Origin: Escherichia coli
Lineage (GTDB): Bacteria > Pseudomonadota > Gammaproteobacteria > Enterobacterales > Enterobacteriaceae
Strand: one strand, 5' to 3'
Assembly: GCF_001677475.2 (NCBI RefSeq)
Contig: NZ_CP015229.1
DNA: 64,000 nt
In this document: piece by piece, positions 4,061 to 44,957 of the stretch
Layout of the letters: each line of letters begins with the position of its first letter
Position numbering within the stretch: the stretch's first letter is position 1
The notes under the pieces: model-generated
Seen by the model: only the letters and a program-made list of their open reading frames with translations
Told to the model about the DNA's origin: nothing
Databases searched by the model: none
Position numbers and translations under genes: made by a program

Positions 4061-4400
4061 GGCTGTGATGAAAAAGAAAAAGTTGTATTGAAAATGACTA
4101 TTTAAGAGATAGGTAAAAAAGTGCAGCGTTCAGAAATAAGAAAACCCTTAAGTCTGTGCGACACAGGCTTAAGGGTTTCTACCCCATCCGGCGCTTATCT
4201 CCGGCACTCTCAGTGGCTTAGCTCTTGAAGGGGCGATAAGAATAATCTCATAAAGCTAACCCGCCGTTTTAACACAAACTGCGATTAGTATTATTTTTGA
4301 ACAATATCAGGCGGGTAGATAAGCAGTATTAAGAAGGCCATCGAACCTGGACGGAGATTAATCCAGGTCGATATGGCGAACTTGCGGCATTAAGTCAGGA

Positions 4401-5099: not shown

Positions 5100-8000
5100 T
5101 TAATAATCTCAAGTAAAGCCTGCACAGGATGGCGTACCCCCGTGCCTTCAACCCGTTTGACCTGACTACGGCAGGAATATCCGGTCGCCAGACAGCGGTT
5201 ACGCGGCAGTCGCTGCATCGCCTGATGCCAGGATAACTCATAGATCCCGAGCGAATTTTTATGGTTTTTCGCTTCATGTCCGTAAGTCCCTGCCATGCCG
5301 CAGCAACCCACGCTGACATTTTCCAGTTTCGCGCCAAAACGGGCAAATATCGCGGCCCATTGTGCTGGCGCGCCCGGCAAAGCGGTAACTTCGGTACAGT
5401 GACCAAAGAAATACCATGATTCACCGCTGACTGTAGCCACTGGCTGTGAGTCAAGTGCGCTTGCCAGCCATTCATTCGCCAGTAAGACGTTAAACTCGCC
5501 ACGTTCCTCGCCCAGCGCCAGTTTATATTCATCGCGATAACAAAGTACCAGCGCCGGATCGACGCCCACCATTGGCATCCCCAGCTTCGCCACACGGTTG
5601 AGGAAATCCGCCGTCTTTTTCGCCGTCTTCGCAAAACGATTAAGAAAGCCTTTAATATGCTGGGCTTTGCCATTTGGCGAAAATGGCAGTAACACAGGCT
5701 GGAAACCTAATTTTTCGACCAGACGGACAAAATCCGCCACCACTTGCGCATCGTAATAGCTGGTAAAGGGGTCCTGCACCACCAACACCGTGCGCGCTTT
5801 CTGCTCTGCATTGAGAGCTTCAAGCTGTTCCAGCGTCATGTTTGCCGAGCGATGCCCCACCATTTGTTGTTGTAGCGAGGGGACCGACAGCAGCGGCAAA
5901 TCAACCATGCCGATATGTTTTTCCGAGAGTTTGCGCACCAGCGGCTGGTTAATGAAGAAGTTAAAGGTTTTCGGCGCGCGTGCCATCAGCGGTGCGTAGC
6001 TCTCGACCGTAGCGACGAGGTGGTCGCGCAGCGGGCGTAAATAACGGGTGTGATAGAGCTGCAGGAAACGAGAGCGAAACTCCGGCACATCAATTTTGAT
6101 GGGGCACTGGGTCGAACAAGCTTTACAGGCCAGACAGCCCGACATCGCCTCTTTGACTTCGTGTGAGAAATCATATTCGCCTTTATTCGCATGCCAGCTA
6201 TTGCGCGTGCGGGCAATTAACGTCCGCAAGCTGACGCCGGATTCAGGCAGTTCTTGTTCCAGTTTGAGTGGGTCAACGCCGCGATCCGCCAACAAACGCA
6301 GCCATTCACGCACCAGCGTTGCGCGCCCTTTAGGTGAATGAATCCGGTTCTGGGTGATCTTCATCGACGGACACATCGGACTACGGGCATCAAAGTTGAA
6401 GCATAAACCGTTGCCGTTACACTCCATCGCACCACGCCACTGCTGGCGTACCGCAATGGGGATCTGCCGGTCGAATGTACCGCGCTTCACCGCGTCCACT
6501 TTCATCATCGTTGCATCGAGACCTTCTGGCGGGCAAATCTTCCCTGGGTTGAGTCGGTTATGCGGGTCAAATGCCGCTTTCACTTTACGCAGTTCTGCAA
6601 AAAGTTCCTCACCGAAAAACGCCGGGCTGTATTCGGCGCGAAAACCTTTGCCGTGTTCGCCCCACAACAAACCACCGTATTTCGCAGTCAGCGCCACCAC
6701 GTCATCAGAGATTTGCTTCATCAAAATCTCTTGTTGCGGATCGCACATATCCAGCGCTGGACGTACGTGCAAGACACCTGCATCGACGTGACCGAACATA
6801 CCGTAGCTTAAGCCGTGGCTGTCGAGCAGCGCGCGAAATTCAGCAATATAATCCGCCAGGTGTTCCGGCGGTACGCAGGTATCCTCAGCAAACGGAATTG
6901 GCTTAGCGGCACCTTTGGCATTGCCAAGCAGACCAACGGCTTTTTTGCGCATCGCATAGATACGTTCAACACCCGCCAGCTCGCGGCACACCTGCCAGCC
7001 GATCACTCCTGCCTGTTGGCTGGCAATCAGCTCATCCAACCGCACACAGAGTGCATTAACTCGCTCGTCAATCAGTGCCTCATCATCACCAGCAAATTCC
7101 ACAATGTTCAGCCCGAGCATCTCTTTGTCAGGCACATCGGTAATCAACTCGCTGACGGAATGCCAGACAATATCTTCCCGCGCCAGATTCAGCACTTTTG
7201 AGTCCACCGTCTCTACCGAAAGCGCCCGCGCCTCAACCATAAACGGCGCGTTACGCAGCGCGGAGTCAAATGAGTCATATTTAACGTTCACCAGACGGCG
7301 CACTTTAGGCAAGCGCGTAATATCCAGCCGCGCTTCGGTAATAAAGGCCAGCGTTCCTTCTGAACCCGTCAGAATGCGCGTCAGGTCGAACTCGGTCATC
7401 TCATCGTTAAAGACATGACGCAGATCGTAACCGGTAAGAAAGCGGTTAAGTTTGGGAAATTTGTCGATGATTAACTGCCGTTGCTGACGGCAGCGTTGAT
7501 AAACCGTTTTATAGATACGCCCGATAGCTGTATTGGTTTTGCCCAGCGTTTCCGCCAGCTCGACGGGTAAAGGTTGCGTATCGAGAATATCCCCCCCCAA
7601 CAACACCGCCCGCACGCCGAGCACGTGATCTGACGTTTTACCATAGACCAGCGATCCCTGACCGGAAGCATCGGTATTGATCATCCCGCCGAGCGTTGCC
7701 CGGTTGCTGGTCGAAAGTTCTGGTGCAAAAAAGTAGCCGAACGGTTTCAGGTACTGGTTAAGCTGATCTTTAATAACCCCCGCTTCAACGCGCACCCAGC
7801 CCTCTTCAGGGTTAATTTCGATGATGCGGTTCATATGACGGGACATATCAACAATAATCCCCTGGTTGAGCGCCTGACCGTTAGTGCCGGTGCCGCCACC
7901 GCGCGGGGTGAAGATCAACGATGAATAGCGTTCCTGCGCAGCCAGACGGGCGATTAATGCCACATCTGCGGTCGAACGCGGAAATACCACTGCGTCGGGG

Positions 8001-8152
8001 AGAAGTTGGTAAATACTGTTGTCGGTCGACATTGTCAGACGATCGGCATAACTTGTCGCCGTATCGCCGGTAAAACCCTGTTGCTCCAGCTCTTGCAAAT
8101 AATTAAGCACCAGTTGAACGACGCCGGGTGCCTGGGAAATCTGTGGAATCAT
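5096..8152 (-). CDS. ydiJ: FAD-linked oxidoreductase with C-terminal Fe-S/CCG domains (YdiJ)
   Basis: 1018-aa ORF; N-terminal FAD-binding region, Cys clusters (CLACKACSTQCP); synteny. Confidence 0.9.
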   Translation of the reverse strand: MIPQISQAPGVVQLVLNYLQELEQQGFTGDTATSYADRLTMSTDNSIYQLLPDAVVFPRSTADVALIARLAAQERYSSLIFTPRGGGTGTNGQALNQGIIVDMSRHMNRIIEINPEEGWVRVEAGVIKDQLNQYLKPFGYFFAPELSTSNRATLGGMINTDASGQGSLVYGKTSDHVLGVRAVLLGGDILDTQPLPVELAETLGKTNTAIGRIYKTVYQRCRQQRQLIIDKFPKLNRFLTGYDLRHVFNDEMTEFDLTRILTGSEGTLAFITEARLDITRLPKVRRLVNVKYDSFDSALRNAPFMVEARALSVETVDSKVLNLAREDIVWHSVSELITDVPDKEMLGLNIVEFAGDDEALIDERVNALCVRLDELIASQQAGVIGWQVCRELAGVERIYAMRKKAVGLLGNAKGAAKPIPFAEDTCVPPEHLADYIAEFRALLDSHGLSYGMFGHVDAGVLHVRPALDMCDPQQEILMKQISDDVVALTAKYGGLLWGEHGKGFRAEYSPAFFGEELFAELRKVKAAFDPHNRLNPGKICPPEGLDATMMKVDAVKRGTFDRQIPIAVRQQWRGAMECNGNGLCFNFDARSPMCPSMKITQNRIHSPKGRATLVREWLRLLADRGVDPLKLEQELPESGVSLRTLIARTRNSWHANKGEYDFSHEVKEAMSGCLACKACSTQCPIKIDVPEFRSRFLQLYHTRYLRPLRDHLVATVESYAPLMARAPKTFNFFINQPLVRKLSEKHIGMVDLPLLSVPSLQQQMVGHRSANMTLEQLEALNAEQKARTVLVVQDPFTSYYDAQVVADFVRLVEKLGFQPVLLPFSPNGKAQHIKGFLNRFAKTAKKTADFLNRVAKLGMPMVGVDPALVLCYRDEYKLALGEERGEFNVLLANEWLASALDSQPVATVSGESWYFFGHCTEVTALPGAPAQWAAIFARFGAKLENVSVGCCGMAGTYGHEAKNHKNSLGIYELSWHQAMQRLPRNRCLATGYSCRSQVKRVEGTGVRHPVQALLEIIK

Positions 8153-8540
8153 TATATTGACCCTTTCCTGCGGTCTGTGATGTAGGTCGATACACTATTC
8201 TTTCAGGCTGCTGCAATAGCGCACTGAAAGGTGATGTTTGTTTACTCTATGGATTTCGTGTTGCAGGAAGGCGGCAAGCGAGTGAACTCCAGGAGCTTAC
8301 AATAGTAAGTGACTGGGGTGAACGAACGTAGCCGCAGCACATGCAACTTGAAATACGACGAGTAAATCGTTTGCGTGTTGCCTGAGTTGTTGTACCACAT
8401 TTTTTTCTAACACGCCCATCAGAATTAAGGGCAGAATCGGCCTGTTAAAAACCGCTGAAATTGCTCATCATTATGCAGGTGAGTTTCGCGTGTTCACGTC
8501 GCGTCGACGATTTGACGTACAAAAAAGGTGAAAAGTAGTT

Positions 8541-9653
8541 ATGGTAAATGTTCGTCAGCCCAGGGATGTCGCACAAATTCTGCTTTCGGTGCTGTTTTTA
8601 GCCATCATGATTGTGGCATGTCTGTGGATTGTTCAACCCTTTATTCTCGGCTTTGCATGGGCCGGTACGGTGGTTATCGCCACCTGGCCGGTATTGTTAC
8701 GTTTGCAAAAGATCATGTTTGGCCGCCGCTCTCTCGCCGTTCTGGTGATGACGCTGTTATTAGTGATGGTGTTTATCATCCCTATTGCTTTGCTGGTTAA
8801 CAGTATCGTCGACGGCAGCGGCCCGCTAATTAAAGCCATTTCCAGCGGCGACATGACGTTACCCGATCTGTCGTGGCTTAATACCATTCCGGTGATTGGC
8901 GCGAAGCTGTATGCAGGCTGGCACAACTTGCTGGATATGGGGGGTACGGCGATCATGGCGAAAGTCCGCCCTTATATTGGCACCACCACCACCTGGTTCG
9001 TTGGGCAGGCGGCGCATATCGGGCGCTTTATGGTGCATTGTGCGCTGATGCTTCTCTTCAGTGCCCTGCTGTACTGGCGCGGTGAACAGGTGGCACAAGG
9101 CATTCGCCATTTTGCAACCCGTCTGGCAGGCGTTCGCGGAGATGCCGCCGTGCTGCTGGCGGCACAGGCTATCCGCGCGGTGGCGCTGGGTGTGGTGGTG
9201 ACGGCGTTAGTACAGGCAGTGCTTGGCGGTATCGGCCTCGCCGTATCCGGCGTACCTTATGCAACTTTGCTAACGGTGTTAATGATCCTCTCCTGCCTTG
9301 TCCAGCTTGGCCCGTTGCCGGTACTGATTCCGGCGATTATCTGGCTCTACTGGACCGGCGATACCACCTGGGGAACGGTATTGTTAGTGTGGAGCGGTGT
9401 GGTTGGCACGCTGGATAACGTCATCCGCCCAATGTTAATTCGCATGGGTGCCGATTTACCGCTGATCCTGATCCTCTCTGGCGTTATTGGTGGTTTGATT
9501 GCTTTCGGGATGATCGGTCTGTTTATTGGTCCGGTTCTGTTAGCCGTTTCCTGGCGTCTGTTTGCCGCGTGGGTGGAAGAAGTCCCGCCGCCGACGGACC
9601 AACCGGAAGAAATTCTCGAAGAACTTGGCGAAATCGAGAAACCGAATAAGTAA
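8541..9653 (+). CDS. ydiK: AI-2E family inner-membrane transporter YdiK
   Basis: 370-aa highly hydrophobic multi-TM ORF; synteny. Confidence 0.9.
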   Translation: MVNVRQPRDVAQILLSVLFLAIMIVACLWIVQPFILGFAWAGTVVIATWPVLLRLQKIMFGRRSLAVLVMTLLLVMVFIIPIALLVNSIVDGSGPLIKAISSGDMTLPDLSWLNTIPVIGAKLYAGWHNLLDMGGTAIMAKVRPYIGTTTTWFVGQAAHIGRFMVHCALMLLFSALLYWRGEQVAQGIRHFATRLAGVRGDAAVLLAAQAIRAVALGVVVTALVQAVLGGIGLAVSGVPYATLLTVLMILSCLVQLGPLPVLIPAIIWLYWTGDTTWGTVLLVWSGVVGTLDNVIRPMLIRMGADLPLILILSGVIGGLIAFGMIGLFIGPVLLAVSWRLFAAWVEEVPPPTDQPEEILEELGEIEKPNK

Positions 9654-9838: not shown

Positions 9839-9944
9839 ACGGTTATAAATCAACATATTGATTTATAAGCATGGAAATCCCCTGAGTGAAACAACGAATT
9901 GCTGTGTGTAGTCTTTGCCCATCTCCCACGATGGGCTTTTTTTT
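9839..9944 (+). ncRNA. rprA: RprA small regulatory RNA (RpoS translational activator)
   Basis: Sequence ACGGTTATAAATCAACATATTGATTTATAAGCATGGAAATCCCCTGAGTGAAACAACGAATTGCTGTGTGTAGTCTTTGCCCATCTCCCACGATGGGCTTTTTTTT matches RprA as I recall it, including terminal hairpin plus U tract; located between ydiK and ydiL as in K-12. Confidence 0.85.
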
Positions 9945-10081
9945 AACATTTTTCCGCTTCGCTACCTCGCCCCTCACTCTTTCCAATAATGTTGCACAAG
10001 ATACTGTGACTCTCTTCAAGCCGTCAGCAGGCTGATAATGTTATTTATATTTTATTGTTTATTTCATGCAGCCATTACACG

Positions 10082-35344: not shown

Positions 35345-35758
35345 TCAGATTCCCTCCCAAACTATATATCCTTTGTCTCTTGCCCAACAAACAACTGTGT
35401 GGGCTGTATATGTGGATGTGAAGCCGCAATAAGAACATGACACTTCATACCGAGTATTGTAGATGTTAATGGGCTCGTTCTCCTTGTGTATGGGAGTGAC
35501 ATATTCCCAATCATTTGAATCATCATAATCATCAAGTTCAGGGTCTGTGCCGTGAACAACCGTATGTGGAATAAACAAATCTAGGCGCCCACACGAGAGA
35601 CAAGAGGTTCTGGCTCCTCTATCTTTAAGGAATTGAATAAATAATTTGGGCGAAATCTGTTGCAGAACCTGCAAATGCCCACGTTCATTATCATTAAGAG
35701 ACCTGTCTGCATATGGAAAATCATCAAATTTAAGAGGCTTCATATAAGGCATCTCCAA
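35345..35758 (-). CDS. zinc-ribbon-containing protein of unknown function
   Basis: 137-aa ORF with CLSCG...CSYCG Cys pairs; overlaps int 3' end and abuts the next ORF (operon-like); alternative start 35743. Confidence 0.5.
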   Translation of the reverse strand: MEMPYMKPLKFDDFPYADRSLNDNERGHLQVLQQISPKLFIQFLKDRGARTSCLSCGRLDLFIPHTVVHGTDPELDDYDDSNDWEYVTPIHKENEPINIYNTRYEVSCSYCGFTSTYTAHTVVCWARDKGYIVWEGI

Positions 35759-36722
35759 GGGGATTAAATCTCACCGCATCCTGCAGGTAATCCGGCGCAA
35801 GATGGGCATAAATCATCGTTGTCTGAATCTTTGCGTGCCCCAGAATTTTCTGGAGCGTCAGAATATTGCCGCCGTTCATCATGAAATGACTGGCGAAGGT
35901 GTGGCGCAGCGCATGAACAGCCTGGCCGTCAGGAACATCAGGTGCGACCGTTTTGATGACATCGCGAACCAATGGATAATCCAGCGTCGGAAACACCAGT
36001 TTCCCGCCCCGTTTTTTGATCTTTTCAAACAGGCTTTCAGAAATAGGAACGGTACGGTTTTTGCTGTTCTTCGTTTTTGAAAAAGTGATTCGACAATGAA
36101 GAACACGGCGCTGCTCCAGTGCCGCTACCTCGCCCCATCGCGCCCCGGTCGACAGAAGGATTTCGACAGCCAGCCGTTCATCGGGATTTTCAGCCAGTGC
36201 ATCCAGCAACTGAACACATTCAGACTTACTCAGATATCCCATTTCGCGCTCGTTAACCTTCATTCCTTTAAGGCCTTGAACGGGGTTATCGTTAAGAAAA
36301 TGGCCGGATGAGATGAGTGCGGTAAACATCGCGCTTAACGCCCCAATCTCTCGATTTATGGTGCTGGGCTGTATCCCCTGCTCTATCCTGGACACACGTA
36401 GCTCGGTGAGCATCGTTGTATTAAGTTTATGCACGCACGGGTCATCCATTGCCTCACTCAAGCGCAGCAATTTAAGGCGCGTGTTATGCCCTGACTTCAT
36501 TAGCTGGCCGTGGTATTTCCACCACAAGTCAATAAGCACCGACAGCGGACGGCGATCAATGGAGTTTCCTTTCCACTCATTGTTATGCTGTTGCGCCAGC
36601 ACCCACCGCTCATATAAAACTGCATCCGATTTCGTTTTAAATTTTTTGCGAATGCGTTTGCCTTTACGCCCCTCCGGGCGCATGTCAAGAAGATACCCTC
36701 CCGGAATTGATTTTATGCTCAT
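35730..36722 (-). CDS. tyrosine integrase, P2 Int-like
   Basis: ORF 35730..36872; start set at internal Met (MSIKSIPGGYLLDMRPEGRKGKRIRKKF) by resemblance to P2 Int N-terminus; C-terminal catalytic region TGARWGE...HALRHTFASHFMMNGG...LGH...IYAH. Confidence 0.9.
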   Translation of the reverse strand: MSIKSIPGGYLLDMRPEGRKGKRIRKKFKTKSDAVLYERWVLAQQHNNEWKGNSIDRRPLSVLIDLWWKYHGQLMKSGHNTRLKLLRLSEAMDDPCVHKLNTTMLTELRVSRIEQGIQPSTINREIGALSAMFTALISSGHFLNDNPVQGLKGMKVNEREMGYLSKSECVQLLDALAENPDERLAVEILLSTGARWGEVAALEQRRVLHCRITFSKTKNSKNRTVPISESLFEKIKKRGGKLVFPTLDYPLVRDVIKTVAPDVPDGQAVHALRHTFASHFMMNGGNILTLQKILGHAKIQTTMIYAHLAPDYLQDAVRFNPLGDALYEAS

Positions 36723-36771
36723 TCGTGAAACCCCAGCGTTACAAGACCACCATGCCCCCAGCGCTCCATGA

Positions 36772-37083
36772 TTAGCCGGGCTGTGTGCCAGTCTTGCGGG
36801 GTTTTTGAGAAGGCGATGTGCTTTTTGGCCCATCAGGGGAGAGAGACGGACTGATCTGCCCAGCAGCCTCATTTGTTTCGTTACTCATCAACCACGTGGT
36901 GTATTTTTTAAAGTTCGGATGCATTGTGATTTTCAGTAAAACCTCCGTCCCCACACCTCTAATACCAGTCTCATATTGCTTAACTGTACCAACCGCAATA
37001 CCTATTGAATCCGCGAACTTTGCCTGGCTAAGTCCCTCAGATTCTCGAATTGCTTTTAGCTTCTTTGATATCTCTATTGACAT
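36772..37083 (-). CDS. P2 C-type immunity repressor (HTH, no peptidase domain)
   Basis: ORF 36772..37155; start set at MSIEISKK (ATG 37081-37083, AGG RBS); HTH plus motif KYTTWLMSNE...GQISPSL resembling P2 C. Confidence 0.75.
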   Translation of the reverse strand: MSIEISKKLKAIRESEGLSQAKFADSIGIAVGTVKQYETGIRGVGTEVLLKITMHPNFKKYTTWLMSNETNEAAGQISPSLSPDGPKSTSPSQKPRKTGTQPG

Positions 37084-37178
37084 GGTGTGCACCTGAATAC
37101 TATATTGGTTATCAGTTGAGTACCACTTGACGCCACAAAAAGCCACAAATAGCACCAGATTGAATAGGTTATCACATC
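37084..37178. promoter_or_regulatory. divergent early promoter/operator region (repressor vs cox-like operon)
   Basis: Intergenic between divergent C-like and cox-like genes; GGTTATCA repeated at 37107..37114 and 37167..37174; TTGACG -35-like element. Confidence 0.5.
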
Positions 37179-37457
37179 ATGGCAAAAGTCCTGAACACAT
37201 ACGAACAAGCGGATTTTGAGCGTTTGGCGGCGTTCTACCCATACCGTGATGAGCATGGGTTACCTGTGCTTGAAGAAAGCCTGGAAGATTACGCGAAACG
37301 CACGAATCAAAGCATTCTTGCGGTAAGAAGGCAGGCCGACAGATCAGTAATCCCCGTCACCCAAGAAGGAAGAAACACAAAACGCAAAGTAAACCTTTTC
37401 GCAATATTCCTGAAAACCATCAGGAGCGCAGAGAAATACGTGCAGATGACAAAATAA
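37179..37457 (+). CDS. Cox/Apl-position early protein (putative excisionase/transcriptional switch)
   Basis: 92-aa ORF, first gene of rightward early operon opposite the repressor; function assigned by position only. Confidence 0.4.
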   Translation: MAKVLNTYEQADFERLAAFYPYRDEHGLPVLEESLEDYAKRTNQSILAVRRQADRSVIPVTQEGRNTKRKVNLFAIFLKTIRSAEKYVQMTK

Positions 37458-37471
37458 CGAGGTGTAATTTT

Positions 37472-37810
37472 ATGCTGAAGCAACGCCATAATTTTCGTAC
37501 CGGAACGGAACGCCACGCTAACCGTTTCGCTACCAGTGCATCACGTAGTAACTCCCGCTACAGCCTGAGCGAAACACACGCTACACCTGATGGCCATCCC
37601 GTAAAACAAATTGGTGAACACACCTGGCTGATTGAGAAAGCTGGAATCGTGGTTCACAGATGCCAACGCAACCCATTTACCGGAAACCGCATTTTTGCTC
37701 TGAGCAACGGCGACACTCAGTTTGGACAGGATTTCACATTGTACGAAGCACTTCGCACGGTTGATCGTCTGCTTCGCGGGCAAAGTTTTATTAAACAGAC
37801 TGATTTATAA
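37472..37810 (+). CDS. phage early protein, unknown function
   Basis: 112-aa ORF in early operon, same strand, short intergenic spacing. Confidence 0.5.
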   Translation: MLKQRHNFRTGTERHANRFATSASRSNSRYSLSETHATPDGHPVKQIGEHTWLIEKAGIVVHRCQRNPFTGNRIFALSNGDTQFGQDFTLYEALRTVDRLLRGQSFIKQTDL

Positions 37811-37819
37811 CAGGTGCGT

Positions 37820-38099
37820 TATGACCAAAGAGCATGCACAAGGTGTATTTATCCGTTTTATTGATTTTCGCGGTGAACTGTTATTGCGCGCATCAGCTAT
37901 TGATGGAGTTGTCCCATCAGAAAAAAATGCAGCTACTTACGTTTATCTGAACGGCACGCGCCTGACCGTAGAACTTCCGTACCAGACTGTACACGGAATC
38001 ATTAGCGAAGCTGAAAAGGCACGTCAGGTTAATGGCAATGAACCCTATATCGAAATTATTTGCATGGATTCAGAAGCTGAAATCCAGAAAGCAGATTAA
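37820..38099 (+). CDS. phage early protein, unknown function
   Basis: ORF 37722..38099 with start set at MTKEHAQGVF (ATG 37820) to avoid overlap. Confidence 0.45.
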
Positions 38100-38110
38100 A
38101 GGGTGTTGCA

Positions 38111-38353
38111 ATGGACAAAGAATATAAAACACTCATCAACAAAGCACTTGAGCGTTTTTATTTTCGCTTAAGCGCATCAGGCGTTCATGCTGAACGTGCA
38201 GCCCGTGACTCATTGACCAGGGCAATCCGGAGTCTGTATGACGTGGCTTTTTACGCTGATGATCTGGATGCACTTAACGAACTTTCCGAGCTGATCTGTG
38301 CCGCAGAATGCGGAGAACATATTGAACCGTATAAGCTGGGGAATATCGCATGA
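38111..38353 (+). CDS. phage early protein, unknown function
   Basis: 80-aa ORF; operon context. Confidence 0.45.
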   Translation: MDKEYKTLINKALERFYFRLSASGVHAERAARDSLTRAIRSLYDVAFYADDLDALNELSELICAAECGEHIEPYKLGNIA

Positions 38354-38463
38354 GTATATTTATCTCATGGCTTGTTCTGATTATTTCGGTGGCCTGCGCC
38401 ATTGGGATTATGCGAATTATTAATTCAGTGAAAAAGATCGAGCGTTTTTTCTCTGATGAATAA
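38350..38463 (+). CDS. small hydrophobic peptide (37 aa), unknown function
   Basis: ATG overlaps previous stop (ATGA); MSIFISWLVLIISVACAIGIMRIINSVKKIERFFSDE; single TM-like segment; below ORF-track length cut-off. Confidence 0.35.
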   Translation: MSIFISWLVLIISVACAIGIMRIINSVKKIERFFSDE

Positions 38464-38556
38464 CGATACAAATAAAACATCAAATTAAATAAGAAAACGT
38501 GAAAACCATCCGTATTAACGGAGGTATTCGCACACGCAAATAACGGAGATACAAAA

Positions 38557-38967
38557 ATGCACGCAAAAGAAGAAGGTATCATCAGAGCACTGAAAGAAAT
38601 TTCAAAGATGGAAAGCGAAGTAGCGAAAAAAGCCGTGGCCAATGCTCACATGGACGTCGCAACCCACACAATGATAGTCGCAAAAGTCACGGCAGAAGCT
38701 GCCAAAATCATCGAAGAACAGGGTGTGGAACTTGCGCTTCTCAAAACTAAACCAGTCACCGGACTGGATTTATCTGACACCGGACGCCTTATTTACACTA
38801 TTGGCTCGGAGTCACAGCGATACACCATTATCGCCGGATTACAGAACAAATACCTGATCACTCCTCATCCCATAAGGGAATCAGCGCTTCTGACAAATCT
38901 CCGCCTGATAGAGCGCTCTCAAGTTGCATTCATTGATGACGCCCGACACACCGTATTTAACGCATAG
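38557..38967 (+). CDS. phage early protein, unknown function
   Basis: 136-aa ORF; operon context. Confidence 0.5.
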   Translation: MHAKEEGIIRALKEISKMESEVAKKAVANAHMDVATHTMIVAKVTAEAAKIIEEQGVELALLKTKPVTGLDLSDTGRLIYTIGSESQRYTIIAGLQNKYLITPHPIRESALLTNLRLIERSQVAFIDDARHTVFNA

Positions 38968-38990
38968 GGTTACTGGACAAAGGGGGTGCA

Positions 38991-39194
38991 ATGGCAATTA
39001 AGCATTTTCCCGTCGTTCGCTTTACCTCCAGAGGGCGCGAATACGAGGTCGACGAACGCCTGATTACCACTATCGACAAACATCGTTCGGAAAAGGATGC
39101 ACACCACATCTACCTCACTGACGGTACTTACTTCTGCGCCACCAACGTGGCGCGGGTGAATCTTATCCGACAGGTACAGGAGCCACGCAGATGA
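38991..39194 (+). CDS. phage early protein, unknown function
   Basis: 67-aa ORF; stop overlaps next start. Confidence 0.45.
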   Translation: MAIKHFPVVRFTSRGREYEVDERLITTIDKHRSEKDAHHIYLTDGTYFCATNVARVNLIRQVQEPRR

Positions 39195-39457
39195 CCATTC
39201 TGGACTACATCGCTACTCATCCGGGTTGTAGCGGCGGAGAGATCGCCGCAGCACTGAATACTCCAACCACAGCCATTAATGCTGAGTTACGCCAACTTTG
39301 GCGCGGCGGCTTAGTCATCAGAACAAACCGCAGCACAGGTGGTCGCGCTCGCAAAACTGGAGGCCAGGCTTCTTACCACGTAAACCCGATGCCGTTCGGG
39401 TGCGGCAATCCACTTACCAACATGTTTAACCAGCTACTGAAGGAAGCCAGAACATGA
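39191..39457 (+). CDS. small putative DNA-binding (winged-helix-like) phage protein
   Basis: 88-aa ORF; overlapping start/stop with neighbours. Confidence 0.45.
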   Translation: MTILDYIATHPGCSGGEIAAALNTPTTAINAELRQLWRGGLVIRTNRSTGGRARKTGGQASYHVNPMPFGCGNPLTNMFNQLLKEART

Positions 39458-39753
39458 GCACCATCAACCACCAGAAGCTACGCGAACTGGCATTTTCCCT
39501 GCAACGAATGGCAACGCCTCAAAAATTACTGGCGTTTCGCGCAATGCTCTCGCCGTCTGCTGTGCTGGCACTGCTGGATGAGCAGGAGCACGCCAGAACC
39601 ACGGCTCCTGCCATTCGCCTGACACTCCATCATGAAATTGCTGATTTCTGCGCGACGCTGGAGGCACCAGGCGAACCGGAAACGCCGGAAGCAATACAGC
39701 AAGAGCTGCTGCAACGCATTGACAAGGTTTTTGATTTTTTTCTGAACCACTAA
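39454..39753 (+). CDS. phage early protein, unknown function
   Basis: 99-aa ORF; coupled to previous gene. Confidence 0.45.
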   Translation: MSTINHQKLRELAFSLQRMATPQKLLAFRAMLSPSAVLALLDEQEHARTTAPAIRLTLHHEIADFCATLEAPGEPETPEAIQQELLQRIDKVFDFFLNH

Positions 39754-40075
39754 GAAACCAGAACATGCACACACAAAAAAACCGCTTGCCATGCCGCAAT
39801 CAGTCAGGTTACATTTCCGCTGCACCTCATAAAACGGGTGCCGGGTTTCGCAGCCTGCTAACTACACAAGCGCACAACCGCGCCAGCGGTTTTTTTGTGC
39901 GTACTGTATTGCCACGTTTTTTTCGCGCCAGAATTATGGCGGGGCGTACGGGGCCGACTTCGGTCGGGCCGGGTTCTTGTGTAGCCGGTACTGCGAACCT
40001 CGTACGTCTCGCCACCCACAGTTTCGCAGCTCTGGATGGTAAGTTTTCACAACTTACTACACAAGAGGCCACACC

Positions 40076-40306
40076 ATGGCAAACCGCAAACAACAGCGCG
40101 CATACGCTGCGCGTCGTCACATCCAGACTGAAATCAACCGCAGACTTTCCCGCGCATTCCGCGTCACTAAAATCATGCACATCAATATGCTGCATGAGCG
40201 TAGCTGCGAACTTTCAAACCTCTATTCATCCGCTGTTTTCAGCTATCTGGCGGATGATCTGCGCGAGCTTCAGCAGCTCATCCAGCAGCAAAACAAACTC
40301 CATTAA
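40076..40306 (+). CDS. phage early protein, unknown function
   Basis: 76-aa ORF with AGAGG RBS; basic. Confidence 0.4.
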   Translation: MANRKQQRAYAARRHIQTEINRRLSRAFRVTKIMHINMLHERSCELSNLYSSAVFSYLADDLRELQQLIQQQNKLH

Positions 40307-40378
40307 TTCCTGTTCCGGGCCTTTCCTGCACCTTGCGGCGGGAGGCCTTCGCACATCTGTAGTAAAGAGAATTGCAGC

Positions 40379-40768
40379 ATGATTGACGCTCATGACTTCA
40401 CAAGATGGGTGCGCACACAGGACACCCGTCTGGCTCCCGTTCTTCAGGGATTATTTGATCTTTACATCCGTGGTCGTGACAACAGAGCACGCACTACAAA
40501 ACCGGAGAATGCGGACACCCTTTATTTCACAGTAGACGACTGCTACCGCGTGGACTTCACACCACACGGGCTGGCGTTGCACTGCCTGACACCACACGGC
40601 GAATCACTGCTGGCGTATTACGACTCCCCGGCCTCCGTATTTGCGGCAATGCTGGCGCATCGCACTGCTGGCGGGTGTGCCTCGCTGAGTGAATACACCG
40701 CTGAATTTAACCGCCTTTCCGCCATCTTCTCGCAGGAGTGGCAGCGCGTGACGGGATACCAGCCATGA
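40379..40768 (+). CDS. phage early protein, unknown function
   Basis: 129-aa ORF; stop overlaps gpA start (ATGA). Confidence 0.5.
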   Translation: MIDAHDFTRWVRTQDTRLAPVLQGLFDLYIRGRDNRARTTKPENADTLYFTVDDCYRVDFTPHGLALHCLTPHGESLLAYYDSPASVFAAMLAHRTAGGCASLSEYTAEFNRLSAIFSQEWQRVTGYQP

Positions 40769-43605
40769 GTGAGTTTGCATGGAGCTGGAATGAACCACGG
40801 CCAGCCATTGATCCGGCCAGATTTACGGAGCGCAGGCAGGAAACTGAAACCGACCTGCAACGCGCCATCCGTTACTACCTTGAGGCAGACAAAAGGGCAC
40901 AGGAAGAACAGGAAGCGAAGGAAGAAGCCTTTTTCGCACAATCCACCGTGGGTAAAAAACTCATGGCATCCCTTGAGGAAGCCGGACAGCGTGAAAAGCT
41001 GGCACAGAGCATCATCAGTAAGCGCCGGGCAACAGAACAAGACACGGTAGCCCGTGCCTTTGCCACACTAAAGGCACTACCTGTTTATCTGCGTGAACCA
41101 CTGAGCCGCCACCTCTCTTTCCTGCGCAAAAAACAGGAAGCCGATCGCCGGAAAGGCAAAAAGAGCTGGCAGGCGGAACGCTATGCACGCGGAACCCTGC
41201 GCAAAATATTCGAACGTCTGGACCGCACCGACAGCCGCTGGCTGACACCGGGTTATCGCGCCCTTGCCGGACGCGAACGCCTGGACGATTTGCTTTACCT
41301 GCCGCAGCTCAACAAACACCAGATACAGACGCTGGCCACCATGACAGCGGCGATGTTCAGCAGCACCTTCGAAAAACTCTGCGATGGCTTTGGCGCGACT
41401 GATGGCGAGCTGACCATGGATGTAACGCTGAAGGCGTATCAGATGCTGGCCCGCATGGCGTTACACCTGCACGCCATGCCTCCGCATTATGACGTACTGA
41501 CAACAGACAAAGACCGGAGGAACGAACCAGACACAGAACTGCTGCCGGGCGCAATCCTTCGCCTGACCTGTGCGGAATGGTGGAAACGCAAACTGTGGCT
41601 GTTACGTTGCGAGTGGCGGGAAGAACAACTCCGAGCCGCCTGTCTGGTTTCCAGAAAAACATCGCCCTATCTGAGCCAGGACGCGTTAAGCGAGTTTCGC
41701 GCACAGCGCGAGAAAACACGCGATTTCCTGAAAAGTTTCATGCTGGAAAATGAAGACGGGTTCACGATTGATCTCGAGACGGTGTATTACGCGGGAGTAA
41801 GTAACCCGGTTCACCGTAAGGCAGAAATGATGGCCACCATGAAGGGACTGGAACTTCTGGCCGAAGCCCGTGGCGACAGAGCGGTGTTTCTGACCGTCAC
41901 CTGCCCGTCAAAATACCACGCAACAACGGAGAACGGTCATCCGAACCCCAAATGGAACGGGGCCACCATGCGCGACTCCAGCGATTACCTGGTTAACACG
42001 TTTTTTGCGGCGGTCCGCAAAAAACTGAACCGCGACGGCCTGCGCTGGTATGGCATCCGCACGGTGGAGCCTCACCATGACGGCACTGTGCACTGGCATA
42101 TGATGGTCTTTGCACATCCGGACGAGATTGAAACCATCGTGTCCCACGTCTGCGATATTGCCATTCAGGAGGACCGCCACGAGCTGGGCGATGACATAAC
42201 TCCGCGTTTTAAGGCGGAGTATGTCGACGGCTCAAAAGGCACACCAACCAGCTACATCGCCACCTACATCGGAAAGAACTTGGACAGCCGCGCCGTGGAT
42301 GGCATCGACCCGAAAACGGGCAAGCCACGCGTTGACCACGAAACCGGAAAATCAATGGCCGAGAGCGTGGAGCGCGCCATCGGCTGGGCGCGCCTTCACC
42401 GGGTCCGTCAGTTCCAGTTCTTTGGCATCCCCTCCCGTCAGGTGTGGCGTGAACTGCGCCGCCTTGCCAGCCAGATGGCACGCAATCCGGAAGGCCCGCA
42501 ACGGCTGAAAGATGATGCAATGGATGCGGTACTCGCTGCCGCCGATGCCGGGTGTTTTGCCACCTACATTGAAAAACAGGGTGGCGTGCTTGTTCCACGC
42601 AAGGACTACCTGATTCGCACCGCCTACGACCTCGCAGATGAGCTGAACGATTACGGCGAACAGAGCGTACAGATTTACGGGATCTGGTCACCACTCATCG
42701 GGGAATCCTCCCGTGTGTGCACGCATCCGGATAACTGGAAGTTGGTAAGACGTAAACCAGAACCGGAAGACAACGCCCACGAAAATGGTTTTGACCTTCA
42801 GGGCGGCCCTGCCGCCCCTTGGACTCGTGGCAATAACTGTCCCCGTGTACAGGAAACGGACAATAACGGGACAGAACTGCCGGAAGAACGGCCAGCACCG
42901 TGGCCGCAGCTCCCTGACGGCGTTGAAGTGAACGAATGGATGCGCTCACTGAAACAGCACGAACGCCGGGCGCTGATGCGTTCGCTTCGTGACAAACAGG
43001 CAAAAAACAGCAGTGATGAAATGCAGAGCTGGACACAGAGCCGCAAACAGCAGCGGCCTTTGCCTGATAACCACGAATTACTCGCTAAAGAATGGCGGGA
43101 GTCTGCTGAATCTCTCGGCCTGCATATCGGTGAACAACAGATGCAGCACCTGTTACGGGGCGGCAGCCTGTACGTTGACGGCAGCATCATTGCACCGCAG
43201 GGATTTGAAATTGTACGCAAACCGGATACCCGCCCGGACAGCCGAATCACGCAGCTCTGGCAGCGCCTGAGCCGTAATCATGGCGTAAGCAGCACGGAGA
43301 TCCGCCATAACCCGGTCGCCAGCTATCTGGCACAGCTGGGGGCATCAGACCCTGAAGTCGCCGCACGCCTGGCATCCACACTTCAGCAGGACCAGAACAC
43401 CATGAAAACACCCGTTACCGTGCTTTCTGACATGCTGCGCGCCATCCGCGACGCAGAGCACGCACAGAGAATCAGTGAAACCACTGAACGCGCCCGCCGC
43501 AAAGCAGACCTGCTGCGGGGTGGCCTGACCAGTGGAAACAAAAAACAGACAGAAACGGGACTCATGAATCCCGTAAATGAGCAAAAAACGCGCAGCGATA
43601 TATGA
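40765..43605 (+). CDS. rolling-circle replication initiator, P2 gpA-like, with long C-terminal extension
   Basis: ORF 40738..43605; start set at ATG 40765 (MSEFAWSW); HWHMMVF and ATYIGKN motifs typical of gpA-family nicking proteins; 946 aa. Confidence 0.8.
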   Translation: MSEFAWSWNEPRPAIDPARFTERRQETETDLQRAIRYYLEADKRAQEEQEAKEEAFFAQSTVGKKLMASLEEAGQREKLAQSIISKRRATEQDTVARAFATLKALPVYLREPLSRHLSFLRKKQEADRRKGKKSWQAERYARGTLRKIFERLDRTDSRWLTPGYRALAGRERLDDLLYLPQLNKHQIQTLATMTAAMFSSTFEKLCDGFGATDGELTMDVTLKAYQMLARMALHLHAMPPHYDVLTTDKDRRNEPDTELLPGAILRLTCAEWWKRKLWLLRCEWREEQLRAACLVSRKTSPYLSQDALSEFRAQREKTRDFLKSFMLENEDGFTIDLETVYYAGVSNPVHRKAEMMATMKGLELLAEARGDRAVFLTVTCPSKYHATTENGHPNPKWNGATMRDSSDYLVNTFFAAVRKKLNRDGLRWYGIRTVEPHHDGTVHWHMMVFAHPDEIETIVSHVCDIAIQEDRHELGDDITPRFKAEYVDGSKGTPTSYIATYIGKNLDSRAVDGIDPKTGKPRVDHETGKSMAESVERAIGWARLHRVRQFQFFGIPSRQVWRELRRLASQMARNPEGPQRLKDDAMDAVLAAADAGCFATYIEKQGGVLVPRKDYLIRTAYDLADELNDYGEQSVQIYGIWSPLIGESSRVCTHPDNWKLVRRKPEPEDNAHENGFDLQGGPAAPWTRGNNCPRVQETDNNGTELPEERPAPWPQLPDGVEVNEWMRSLKQHERRALMRSLRDKQAKNSSDEMQSWTQSRKQQRPLPDNHELLAKEWRESAESLGLHIGEQQMQHLLRGGSLYVDGSIIAPQGFEIVRKPDTRPDSRITQLWQRLSRNHGVSSTEIRHNPVASYLAQLGASDPEVAARLASTLQQDQNTMKTPVTVLSDMLRAIRDAEHAQRISETTERARRKADLLRGGLTSGNKKQTETGLMNPVNEQKTRSDI

Positions 43606-43650
43606 AGCGCGCACAAAACAGGCAAAAACGGGATTTTAGAATCCCGTAAA
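43554..43650. promoter_or_regulatory. twin palindromic operator-like sites flanking the putative parM promoter
   Basis: AACGGGACTCATGAATCCCGTAAA at 43554..43577 and AACGGGATTTTAGAATCCCGTAAA at 43627..43650, each an inverted repeat ACGGGA-N8-TCCCGT; TATAT between them. Confidence 0.5.
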
Positions 43651-43681
43651 CGATTAATTAATCAACATAAGGAAAAGCGAC

Positions 43682-44641
43682 ATGAAAATTTGTATCGACG
43701 ACGGCTCCACCAACATCAAGCTGGCATGGACTGAGAACGGCGAACGCCGCAACGCCATCAGCCCGAACAGCTTCAAGTCGGAATGGTCTGCGCCGTTCGG
43801 TGGCACGCAGCCCGCGAACTACATGCTTGATGGCGTGCGCTATGGTTTTGATCCGGTCAGCGATCGCTTTGTCCAGACGACCGACACGCAATACCAGTAC
43901 AGCGATGTGAATGTCATTGCCATTCATCACGCGCTGGTCAAATCAGGCATCACGCCACAGGAGGTGGATGTGGTTGTCACCCTGCCACTGAGCGAGTATT
44001 TCGACACAAACGCACAGCCGGACATGGCCAACATCAACCGCAAAAAAGCGAACGTTATGCGCCCGGTGGAGTACCAGAACGGCGAAGCATTCACTATCCG
44101 TAACGTGCGGGTTATGCCTGAATCCATTCCGGCTGGCTTTAAGGCACTGGCTGACATGAGTCCGTTTGAATCCCTGCTGATTGTAGATTTGGGCGGAACC
44201 ACGCTGGATGTGGCAAAGGTTCAGGGGCAACTGGCAGGTATCAGCCAGGTGTTTTGCGATCCACACGTAGGCGTTTCTCTGATGGCCGATGCCGTACTGT
44301 CGGTGATGGCCACTAACGGTATGCGCACCAGTCACCACATCGCCAATACCATTATCGAACATCGCCATAATGAAGCCTGGCTGCGCCAGCACATCCACAA
44401 TGACGCGCATTACGCCAGCCTGATGGAGGTTATTCGTGAAAAGGAAGAAACACTGAAACAACGCGTGATCCGCGCGCTGGCGGGTTTTTCGGGTTACGGG
44501 CGGGTGATGGTTGTCGGTGGAGGGGCGGAGATTGTGGCACCCGCTATCCGCGAAGCCTGCGGAGTTCATGCGACTTTCATCGCGGACGGGGTGCCACAGT
44601 TTGCTCTGGTTAATGGGCTGTACGCAATGGACAAGGAGTAA
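43682..44641 (+). CDS. actin-like ATPase, ParM/StbA family
   Basis: 319-aa ORF; motifs DDGSTNIKL, SPNSFK, YSDVNVIAIHHAL, MPESIPAG, DLGGTTLD, VVGGGAEI align with plasmid R1 ParM as I recall it. Confidence 0.85.
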   Translation: MKICIDDGSTNIKLAWTENGERRNAISPNSFKSEWSAPFGGTQPANYMLDGVRYGFDPVSDRFVQTTDTQYQYSDVNVIAIHHALVKSGITPQEVDVVVTLPLSEYFDTNAQPDMANINRKKANVMRPVEYQNGEAFTIRNVRVMPESIPAGFKALADMSPFESLLIVDLGGTTLDVAKVQGQLAGISQVFCDPHVGVSLMADAVLSVMATNGMRTSHHIANTIIEHRHNEAWLRQHIHNDAHYASLMEVIREKEETLKQRVIRALAGFSGYGRVMVVGGGAEIVAPAIREACGVHATFIADGVPQFALVNGLYAMDKE

Positions 44642-44645
44642 ACCA

Positions 44646-44957
44646 ATGACGACACCAACCAGACGGATAAGTTTCTATCTGAAGCCTGCGGCCGTCAAGA
44701 ACGAAAGCGAAGCATGCGCCTGGCTGGACAGCCTTACACCAGAAGCCCGCAAAAGCGGCCAACGCGTGGCTTTTCTGGCCGGGCTGGCACTTCTGAAAAT
44801 GAATCCGGCAGAGGCTTACCGACTGGCTGCATGGGCTGACGATGAGGCGTTATCAGTGACACAAACCAGGACAGAATGCCCCGCGTCACAGCCAGTATCA
44901 ACCGCACAGATAACCAGTCAGATGGCCGGAAATATCCGGGCGTTATTTCCCGAATAA
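44646..44957 (+). CDS. ParR-like centromere-binding/repressor protein
   Basis: ATG 44646 with GGAG RBS, 103 aa; RRISFYLKP...AWLDSLTPEARKSGQRVAFLAGLAL resembles R1 ParR N-terminal RHH region; immediately downstream of parM-like gene. Confidence 0.7.
   Translation: MTTPTRRISFYLKPAAVKNESEACAWLDSLTPEARKSGQRVAFLAGLALLKMNPAEAYRLAAWADDEALSVTQTRTECPASQPVSTAQITSQMAGNIRALFPE

Follow-up and report, generated by a model that had tools for sequence, protein, structure and literature searches.

The 322-bp gap at positions 39754–40075 of a 64-kb stretch of Escherichia coli DNA (64,000 nt of contig NZ_CP015229.1; the whole stretch is referred to below as the window) very probably holds an IsrK–C4 antisense-RNA immunity cassette in the early operon of a P2-like prophage of the Xuanwuvirus/P88 type. 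Two RNAs, one IsrK-like and one C4-like, lie directly upstream of a gene whose product resembles the epsilon (E) anti-repressor of satellite phage P4, and two sets of short sequence boxes link the C4-like RNA to targets on both of its sides. The mechanism is most likely, by analogy, that of the P1 immI region, of P4 immunity and of Gifsy-1 IsrK. The element is real, functional-looking and very common, and it belongs to a well-described kind. What is new is this particular member, with a P2-like host phage and an epsilon-type target directly at the site where a box meets the Shine-Dalgarno sequence (SD), and also the breadth of its specificity repertoire.

IsrK-like and C4-like RNAs in the gap

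Rfam covariance models were scanned over positions 36000–44000 and then over the whole window, with the curated gathering scores as thresholds. The original prediction, made from the sequence alone, had suggested that the gap could encode a small RNA (sRNA); the scan returns two, one IsrK-like and one C4-like, each above its Rfam gathering score (Table 1). Both hairpins described in that prediction belong to these RNAs: the small hairpin followed by seven T residues (39876–39891, AACCGC-GCCA-GCGGTT, the T run ending at 39896) is the IsrK terminator, which is of the leaky type, and the GC hairpin GGCCGACTTCGGTCGGGCC with its UUCG loop, located at 39952–39970, lies within the C4-like RNA. The region 39822–40090 as a whole folds strongly (z = −3.6).

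Covariance analysis across homologous prophages, which the original prediction had proposed as a check, finds compensatory changes in the C4 fold, in the IsrK fold and in the pairing of the boxes described below. In 24 diverse sequences (including P4, mEp460, ST64B and F039) 648/648 cells of the C4 fold are paired, and compensatory double changes are seen at 12 of its 27 pairs, whereas sliding the partner columns as a control leaves 33–46% paired; between the window and P88, a C-to-U plus a G-to-A change preserves one pair of the C4 closing stem. The IsrK hairpins show no variation in their stems within the P88-like set, which is therefore uninformative for this fold; distant members (P4 and lambdoid) were used instead, and among these compensatory changes affect 5 of 16 pairs. 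C4-like sequence occurs in 92 phage records, and among the matches listed F039 alone annotates a 'C4 antisense RNA'. A degenerate C4-core pattern matched 120 stretches of viral contigs, many of them probably by chance, and loci anchored on the epsilon-like gene proved more informative.

Upstream of the IsrK-like RNA lies a sigma-70-like promoter candidate whose predicted start, near 39822, corresponds to position 1 of the IsrK model. Its hexamers are unchanged between the window, P88_4B11 and P88, and they co-align with TTGCCT/TATAGT in P4, TTGATT/TACACT in mEp460 and TTGACT/TATATT in F039; the P4 site is presumably the PLE promoter. The Rfam model for the P1-type upstream target (c4-a1b1, RF03163) scores 20.4 bits at 39809–39861, below its gathering score of 46.7, and the IsrK model describes the region better. 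A second promoter-like site at 39909–39937 (TTGCCA-17-AATTAT) was taken as a chance match, because transcription from it would start within the C4 stem and P88 does not conserve its -35 hexamer.

Two trios of complementary boxes that covary

The original prediction had pointed out three copies of TACACAAG in mixed orientation, and these are located at 39863–70 (+), 39976–83 (−) and 40058–65 (+). On both strands of the window there are 4 copies of TACACAAG against an expectation of 1.4, so that ~0.007 would be expected in 322 bp and three copies there are far beyond chance. A second trio had been overlooked: TTCGCAG at 39847–53 (+) and 40023–29 (+), with the complement CTGCGAA at 39991–97. The TACACAAG copies are read from the sequence as the box in a C4 loop together with its two putative targets, and the second trio is arranged in the same three-way fashion (Table 1); the labels a and b follow the 5'-to-3' order in the target, and correspondence to the P1 labels is not assumed. 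The predicted b2:b' duplex is 10 bp long (40057–40066 with 39975–39984) and covers the AAGA of the SD AAGAGG (40063–40068), which sits 7 nt before the ATG of the epsilon-like gene at 40076.

Differences between the window and P88 in this interval fall almost all in the six boxes, and all six are switched together: the P88 boxes are TTTCCAC / GTGGAAA / TTTCCAC and CAACTACAG / CTGTAGTTG / CAACTACAG. For a wider comparison 83 loci were assembled, namely 80 IMG/VR loci that encode the 76-amino-acid (aa) epsilon-like protein plus P88_4B11, P88 and the Citrobacter phage Shae_phiSM. All 83 of the 83 examined loci with the epsilon-like gene have the RNA module directly upstream. They contain 53 unique modules in which 6 a-types and 13 b-types occur in 19 combinations on a nearly invariant scaffold. 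Box a' is complementary to a1 and a2 at 7/7 positions in all variants, except for one a1 comparison in which the extraction was shifted by an indel, and b' pairs with b1 and b2 at 8–9 of 9 positions when G-U wobbles are counted.

Covariation was measured in an alignment of 36 unique modules, with 500 shuffles and with slid partner columns as controls. Pairing of a'/b' with a2/b2 is 97.7%, compared with 71% after shuffling, and double changes occupy 139 cells, compared with 40; with a1/b1 pairing is 100% and double changes occupy 143 cells. The covariation scores of both box sets were reached in 0/500 shuffles, and slid partner columns are 27–51% paired. The predicted energy of loop–target duplexes averages −22.2 kcal/mol for cognate and −9.2 kcal/mol for non-cognate pairs, and cross pairs approach the cognate value to within 3 kcal/mol in only 5 of 342 cases. 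One locus (IMGVR_UViG_2582580934_000004, L191) carries a 17-nt insertion in C4 hairpin 3 that creates tandem b'-type loops, CTTTGCTCT and CTTGTGTAG, of which its b1 and b2 match the second only; this double loop could have arisen by recombination between two specificity classes, could mark a C4 of dual specificity, or could be an artefact of assembly.

Table 1. Features of the candidate cassette and of related conceptual translations (window coordinates unless another sequence is named)
Feature	Position	Strand	Remarks
Left boundary of mobile cassette	39772..39785	+	P88-like phage homology resumes here despite a different upstream gene
Sigma-70-like promoter candidate, TTGCCA-18-TACATT	39786..39815	+	Consensus scan; 9/12 positions match
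IsrK-family sRNA (P4 seqA equivalent)	39822..39896	+	Rfam RF01394, 66.5 bits vs gathering 50, full-length
IsrK hairpin 1	39822-39841	+	
IsrK hairpin 2	39842-39857	+	
IsrK intrinsic terminator	39876-39896	+	Terminator scan
Box a1, TTCGCAG	39847..39853	+	Loop of IsrK hairpin 2; complements a'
Box b1, CTACACAAG	39862..39870	+	Single-stranded, between hairpin 2 and terminator; complements b'; the first TACACAAG
Spacer and C4 5' leader	39897..39931	+	Variable; second T7 run at 39917-39923; weak, non-conserved promoter-like site
C4-family antisense RNA (P4 CI RNA equivalent)	39932..40019	+	Rfam RF01695, 83.2 bits vs 45, model 1-87/87; closing stem of 17 bp
C4 UUCG hairpin	39954-39967	+	
C4 hairpin 3	39968-39989	+	12-nt loop
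Box b', CTTGTGTAG	39976..39984	+	Loop of C4 hairpin 3; the inverted TACACAAG
Box a', CTGCGAA	39991..39997	+	Single-stranded junction of C4
Box a2, TTCGCAG	40023..40029	+	Putative downstream target of a', 7/7 paired
Box b2, CTACACAAGA	40057..40066	+	Putative downstream target of b'; the third TACACAAG
76-aa epsilon-like open reading frame	40076..40306	+	Putative controlled gene; P4 epsilon (E) anti-repressor homologue
Tail after epsilon-like stop	40307..40361	+	Near-invariant, non-coding; imperfect hairpin at 40317-40348
Ash/PHROG-type translation over IsrK–C4	39765-40382		Window
Same, P4 (L207)	8168-8584		
Same, L123	2046-3197		
Same, L124	2052-3209		
Same, L001	5066-5683		

The epsilon-like gene and its tail

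The 76-aa open reading frame (ORF) that follows the boxes scores 29.7 bits against Pfam PF25738 (Derepression), a narrow margin over the gathering score of 27 (P4 epsilon itself scores 170 bits), and is 33% identical to P4 epsilon across 51 aa in BLASTP (E 3e-9). 'Derepression protein' is its name in the Prokaryotic Genome Annotation Pipeline (PGAP) and in the P88 annotation, and the ORF is intact in 54/54 variants. An NCBIfam scan of the 76-aa ORF, of a 205-aa ORF that crosses the gap and of neighbouring ORFs returned no family for any of them, and comparison of the downstream orf129 with P4 orf151 found no similarity.

The 55-nt tail behind the stop codon shows singleton changes only in the 54 variants, while the epsilon-like ORF varies at 88 of 231 sites. 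Its hairpin is an imperfect one of 14 bp without a U tract, and its stability compared with shuffled sequence is not significant (z = −1.65). The tail may or may not belong to the RNA switch.

Prophage setting, distribution and linked repressors

The prophage begins with an integrase gene (35730–36872, −) and a gene for a helix-turn-helix C-type repressor (~36772–37155, −), followed on the + strand by an operon in which DUF4761, DUF4754, MarR-like and Ead/Ea22-like ORFs lead to the GPA-family replication protein A (40738–43605). The term 'early operon' in the original prediction is thus apt for the replication operon of a P2-like prophage that has its integrase and C repressor on the opposite strand. 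The gap itself had been delimited exactly, from the stop of the ORF at 39454–39753 to the ATG of the ORF at 40076–40306, and it is the widest intergenic space in the + operon. Homology to the window starts at ~39772 across related loci, also where the upstream gene is a different one. The closest sequenced phages are Xuanwuvirus P88_4B11 (97%), PhiR44_2 and P88 (87%). P88 was obtained after mitomycin C treatment (PMC5285337). In the window the LexA-box pattern CTGT-N8-ACAG has a single match, inside gene A and with a GC-rich spacer, a count equal to chance; in this limited check, in which tum-like genes were not searched for, a competing SOS-type induction route was not found, because there is no LexA-box-like site outside gene A.

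The module is common: of 5426 complete E. coli genomes, 1139 (~21%) contain it at a query coverage of at least 80%, and the search gave 1,714 E. coli places in all. In an otherwise syntenic P2-like prophage of E. coli E2348/69 (L208; NZ_CP059840.2, 2289645–2294762) IsrK, C4 and most of the epsilon-like gene are cleanly deleted. The last ~118 nt of the cassette, including the conserved tail, are left, and PGAP annotates this remnant as an 'ash family protein' pseudogene. Since this P2-like prophage is without most of the cassette, the cassette is accessory.

At least 10 C-repressor types, 22–69% identical to one another, are linked to the module in P88-like prophages (loci L209–L285 plus window 36772–37155). 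A single RNA specificity is found with as many as six C types, and a single C type with seven RNA specificities; because box, epsilon and C types combine freely in this way, the RNA and protein determinants of immunity reassort. The diversity of the boxes would then provide immunity specificities at the RNA level, whose reassortment does not depend on the protein repressor. Common to all C types are the C-terminal motif GQ(I/V)xPxL and the KY..W region before it, and the sos mutation (T67I) that makes P2 C resistant to P4 E maps in the C-terminal half (PMC2995052). A test for co-variation between epsilon and C repressor, which would support action of the epsilon-like protein on its own C, found none: one and the same epsilon-like protein can be found with as many as five C types, so that action on its own C is without support of this kind. 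The lack of co-variation would nevertheless fit an action on the conserved C-terminal half of C.

Some features elsewhere in the window concern its wider context. Over positions 43682–44957 the closest phages have, after gene A, genes for a ParM-like segregation ATPase and a small 'partition protein'; plasmid-type partition genes are uncommon for an integrated P2-like prophage. The host sRNA genes RprA (9839–9946, +, 118.5 bits) and RydB (4174–4234, −, 81.6 bits) are present, which indicates an E. coli-type chromosome. A scan of the whole 64-kb window for transfer RNA and transfer-messenger RNA genes found none.

Proposed mechanism

In a lysogen the early promoter would be shut by the C repressor, and the internal promoter upstream of IsrK would stay on. 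Most transcripts from it would end at the T7 terminator as an IsrK-like sRNA, and those that read through would yield mature C4 by processing, which is done by RNase P in P1 and P4. C4 would pair with a2/b2 on its own transcript, or on an incoming cognate one, and thereby block ribosome binding at the epsilon-like gene; the blocked translation would lead to premature, Rho-dependent termination, keeping the epsilon-like gene, orf129 and A silent. The a1/b1 boxes of IsrK would compete for C4, as an anti-antisense decoy or as a helper in cis, and so set a threshold. The epsilon-like protein would be made if C4 is outcompeted or if an entering phage carries boxes that do not match. Part of the mechanistic detail behind these steps comes from the P4 literature. 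The weakest step is the last, in which the epsilon-like protein would inactivate the P2-type C repressor and the prophage would be derepressed, as suggested by P4 E (PMC2995052).

Several points weigh against this interpretation. The basis of the epsilon assignment is a Pfam score close to the threshold, together with 33% identity across 51 aa. Other systems are the source for promoter activity, RNase P processing and Rho dependence, and also for the direction of the presumed IsrK effect, which is that of an activator in Gifsy-1 and part of the repression in P4. Identical epsilon-like proteins occur with C types, up to five of them, that are <50% identical to each other. Finally, the 205-aa ORF discussed below is open in 50/54 variants, and some translation of it, like that of Gifsy-1 orf45, might occur (there is an in-frame ATG at 39936).

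Alternative readings of the gap

The gap had been described as non-coding, and all features described in it are at the places given, but it is not free of ORFs: the 205-aa ORF at 39765–40382 spans it and overlaps the epsilon-like gene out of frame. The gap could on this basis be the 5' half of a real gene, for a transcriptional regulator of the Ash family, and several points favour this reading. RefSeq NC_049391 labels the ORF (gp51) 'transcriptional regulator', and PGAP names it as Ash family elsewhere; it is open in P88 and in 50 of the 54 unique variants, its stop codon and the ATG of the gene that follows overlap, long ORFs cross the same RNAs into a Rha domain in lambdoid phage annotations, and the short orf45 at the equivalent place in Gifsy-1 is translated. 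The original prediction had named a conserved protein-coding ORF, found by homology search, as the result that would speak against an RNA element, and formally there is one, with 25.8 bits against Pfam Phage_ASH (PF10554; gathering 26) and E~1e-15 for PHROGs 6928, 821 and 995 ('transcriptional regulator'), but it carries no coding signature. Variable sites outside the boxes fall 19/22/21 by codon position, and synonymous/non-synonymous counts are alike in all frames (22/41, 22/39 and 20/42); within 40076–40306 the peak of variation at the second position of the long frame is at the third position of the epsilon frame (39/88 sites). The long ORF is broken in 4/54 variants (by a point stop, by indels or by loss of 2 nt from the T run) and the epsilon ORF in none, and the six hypervariable patches covary as base pairs, not codons. 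The Pfam and PHROG matches are limited to aa 4–122, exactly the stretch of IsrK, C4 and a2/b2. The PF10554 score of the ORF lies just below the profile threshold and its evolution is not that of a protein-coding sequence, and that the gap is part of such a gene is considered very unlikely; it is concluded that the 205-aa ORF is probably a frozen accident of conserved RNA sequence.

The same families shed light on annotation elsewhere. PF10554 and PHROGs 6928, 821 and 995 match conceptual translations of IsrK–C4 RNA (Table 1), including the obsolete cI 'protein' of P4: Phage_ASH gives 59.7 bits on P4's old 'cI gene product' coding sequence, which overlaps the Rfam C4 match. We take the product of the P4 'cI' gene to be the CI RNA. 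CI is described as an RNA in the literature (PMC3632133, PMC4825925). The Phage_ASH and PHROG families, and with them many RefSeq/PGAP labels of the 'Ash family', 'transcriptional regulator' and N-terminally extended 'antirepressor' kinds, appear from these matches to be built on an RNA gene.

That the gap is a DNA element, in which the TACACAAG and TTCGCAG repeats would bind a protein or act as an accessory origin or in recombination, would suit short repeats of mixed orientation in a non-coding gap of a replication-proximal operon, and a DNA site of this sort (accessory origin or protein-binding site) was among the original suggestions. The middle copy is, however, always the reverse complement of the outer two, and mismatches between copies are G-U-compatible (e.g. 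CAAACGTAG vs CTGCGTTTG), which is meaningful for RNA duplexes only; moreover, the boxes occupy a hairpin loop and single-stranded segments of RNA folds that covariation supports, and they have no linked protein of matching hypervariability, C-repressor types reassorting freely with box types. Because G-U tolerance together with strict co-variation as reverse complements is the signature of RNA–RNA pairing, the DNA-repeat reading is ruled out for practical purposes and its probability is regarded as negligible. A purely cis-acting attenuator, whose hairpins terminate or pause early-operon transcription before A without any trans-acting RNA, could account for the canonical terminator-like hairpin with its T7 run on the + strand within the operon and for the strong regional folding, but it leaves unexplained the three-way complementarity of the boxes with massive co-variation in two independent sets, the conserved promoter-like site upstream, and the full-length matches to two families of trans-acting RNAs; it is held to be highly improbable. 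The suggested attenuator controlling A survives in spirit, in that the T7 hairpin is the IsrK terminator, but control is most likely exerted by C4 in trans at the ribosome binding site of the epsilon-like gene, with polarity as the only way in which A would feel it, to judge from P4 and P1.

A last alternative keeps the RNA machinery and gives it another main job, that of warfare between elements instead of control of the phage's own lysogeny: C4 would guard against cognate superinfecting phages or P4-like satellites, and the epsilon-like protein would derepress other resident P2-type prophages. Consistent with this are the many unrelated C types found with identical epsilon-like proteins, all of which keep the conserved C-terminal half (the sos T67I region of P2 C), the extreme diversification of the boxes, as expected under pressure to escape cross-immunity, the anti-satellite role proposed for lambdoid IsrK–C4 modules (PMC3632133), and the accessory nature of the cassette seen in E2348/69. 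On the other hand, the a'/b' boxes of the window do not match those of P4, the cassette precedes the replication gene of the phage itself, an arrangement shared with P4, and the limited LexA-pattern check (tum-like genes not searched for) found no competing SOS-type induction route. This alternative is judged unlikely as the main role, and it differs from the immunity cassette proposed here in emphasis, not in mechanism.

Implications

A speculative extension, judged less likely than not, is that the epsilon-like protein acts as a generic anti-repressor, via the conserved C-terminal half of most P2-type C repressors, with the RNA lock as the sole phage-specific element. If so, a two-box code (at least 6 x 13 types, in free reassortment with at least 10 repressor types) would decide which P2-like phages and P4-like satellites, whether co-resident or incoming, trigger each other, and the immunity–epsilon cassette with which P4 hijacks its helper and the induction switch of the helper lineage would be one mobile module. 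The results suggest a bipartite, P1-like immunity in P88-type prophages, composed of the protein C repressor and an RNA lock on an anti-repressor, and this would offer an induction route in a lineage without a LexA-box pattern match outside gene A. They also assign a putative function to an interval that is now unannotated or mislabelled 'transcriptional regulator', 'Ash family protein' or 'hypothetical protein', and they flag a probable artefact, in that Phage_ASH and several PHROGs were built on translations of an RNA gene. The 19 box combinations constitute a ready set of orthogonal antisense/target pairs and a case of diversifying co-evolution of three RNA sites.

Comparison with known systems

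The closest parallel is P4, whose immunity region has the experimentally defined layout PLE – seqA – CI RNA/seqB – seqC ... epsilon – orf151 – alpha. The same Rfam models match it in the same order on one strand (isrK 8615–8692, C4 8420–8507 in NC_001609), followed by epsilon (7888–8175), orf151 and alpha. A promoter-like site lies at the same relative position, boxes upstream and downstream complement the loop and junction of C4/CI, the downstream box is beside an SD, and an epsilon-family gene and then a replication gene follow. Because the order of elements is the same, the cassette in the window is regarded as a compact relative of the P4 immunity–epsilon region in a helper-type phage. The two differ in that the P2-like phage in the window is complete and has a C repressor and Cox of its own, whereas P4 is a satellite for which the RNA is the only immunity factor; in spacing, with 36 nt from IsrK to C4 (~108 nt in P4) and 57 nt from C4 to epsilon (~245 nt in P4); and in the epsilon protein, of 76 aa compared with 95 aa and only 33% identical. 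In P4, mEp460 and F039 the SD-adjacent box precedes an ORF beginning ATGGCTAC (kil/icd-like in P4), whereas here the epsilon-like ORF takes that place. Since the box sequences differ, the window prophage and P4 should be heteroimmune. P4 E binds P2 C (PMC2995052).

The immI region of P1/P7 (c4 – icd – ant1/2) is alike in having a C4 RNA with exposed a' and b' boxes and targets both upstream and at the ribosome binding site of the first downstream gene, and in forming a second, RNA-based layer of immunity, which stands guard over an anti-repressor directed at the main protein repressor. Citron and Schuster reportedly found in 1990 that the heteroimmunity of P1 and P7 is due to box changes alone. 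In the general immI scheme of P1, C4 blocks the expression of ant (PMC8198154). In contrast to the window, the genes regulated in P1 are icd first and then ant; the Ant protein has no relation to epsilon, the P1 prophage is a plasmid, and the c4-a1b1 model of its upstream target misfits the window, which the IsrK model fits.

The isrK – orf45 (STnc1160) – anrP region of Salmonella Gifsy-1 likewise has an IsrK sRNA that ends at a leaky terminator; it is transcribed there from a promoter of its own, to which the candidate promoter in the window would correspond. Read-through of IsrK gives a processed C4-like RNA, STnc1160, and then the anti-repressor AnrP, and IsrK is complementary to the downstream RNA (PMC4825925). 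There, however, the context is lambdoid and AnrP is another kind of anti-repressor. A 45-codon ORF in the C4 region of Gifsy-1 is translationally coupled to anrP, and IsrK activates in trans; in the window, by comparison, the ORF that runs on from the in-frame ATG at 39936 is much longer and lacks a coding signature. The modules of lambdoid and Stx phages (mEp460, ST64B, F039 and others) share 70–80% nucleotide identity in the RNA pair and the same layout of promoter-like site, boxes and SD, differing in that their downstream gene encodes a Rha-domain anti-repressor and in that most records place an ORF over the RNAs. IsrK and C4 in such modules have been equated with P4 seqA and CI under the name 'IsrK–C4 immunity system' (PMC3632133), the kind of system to which the cassette described here very probably belongs.

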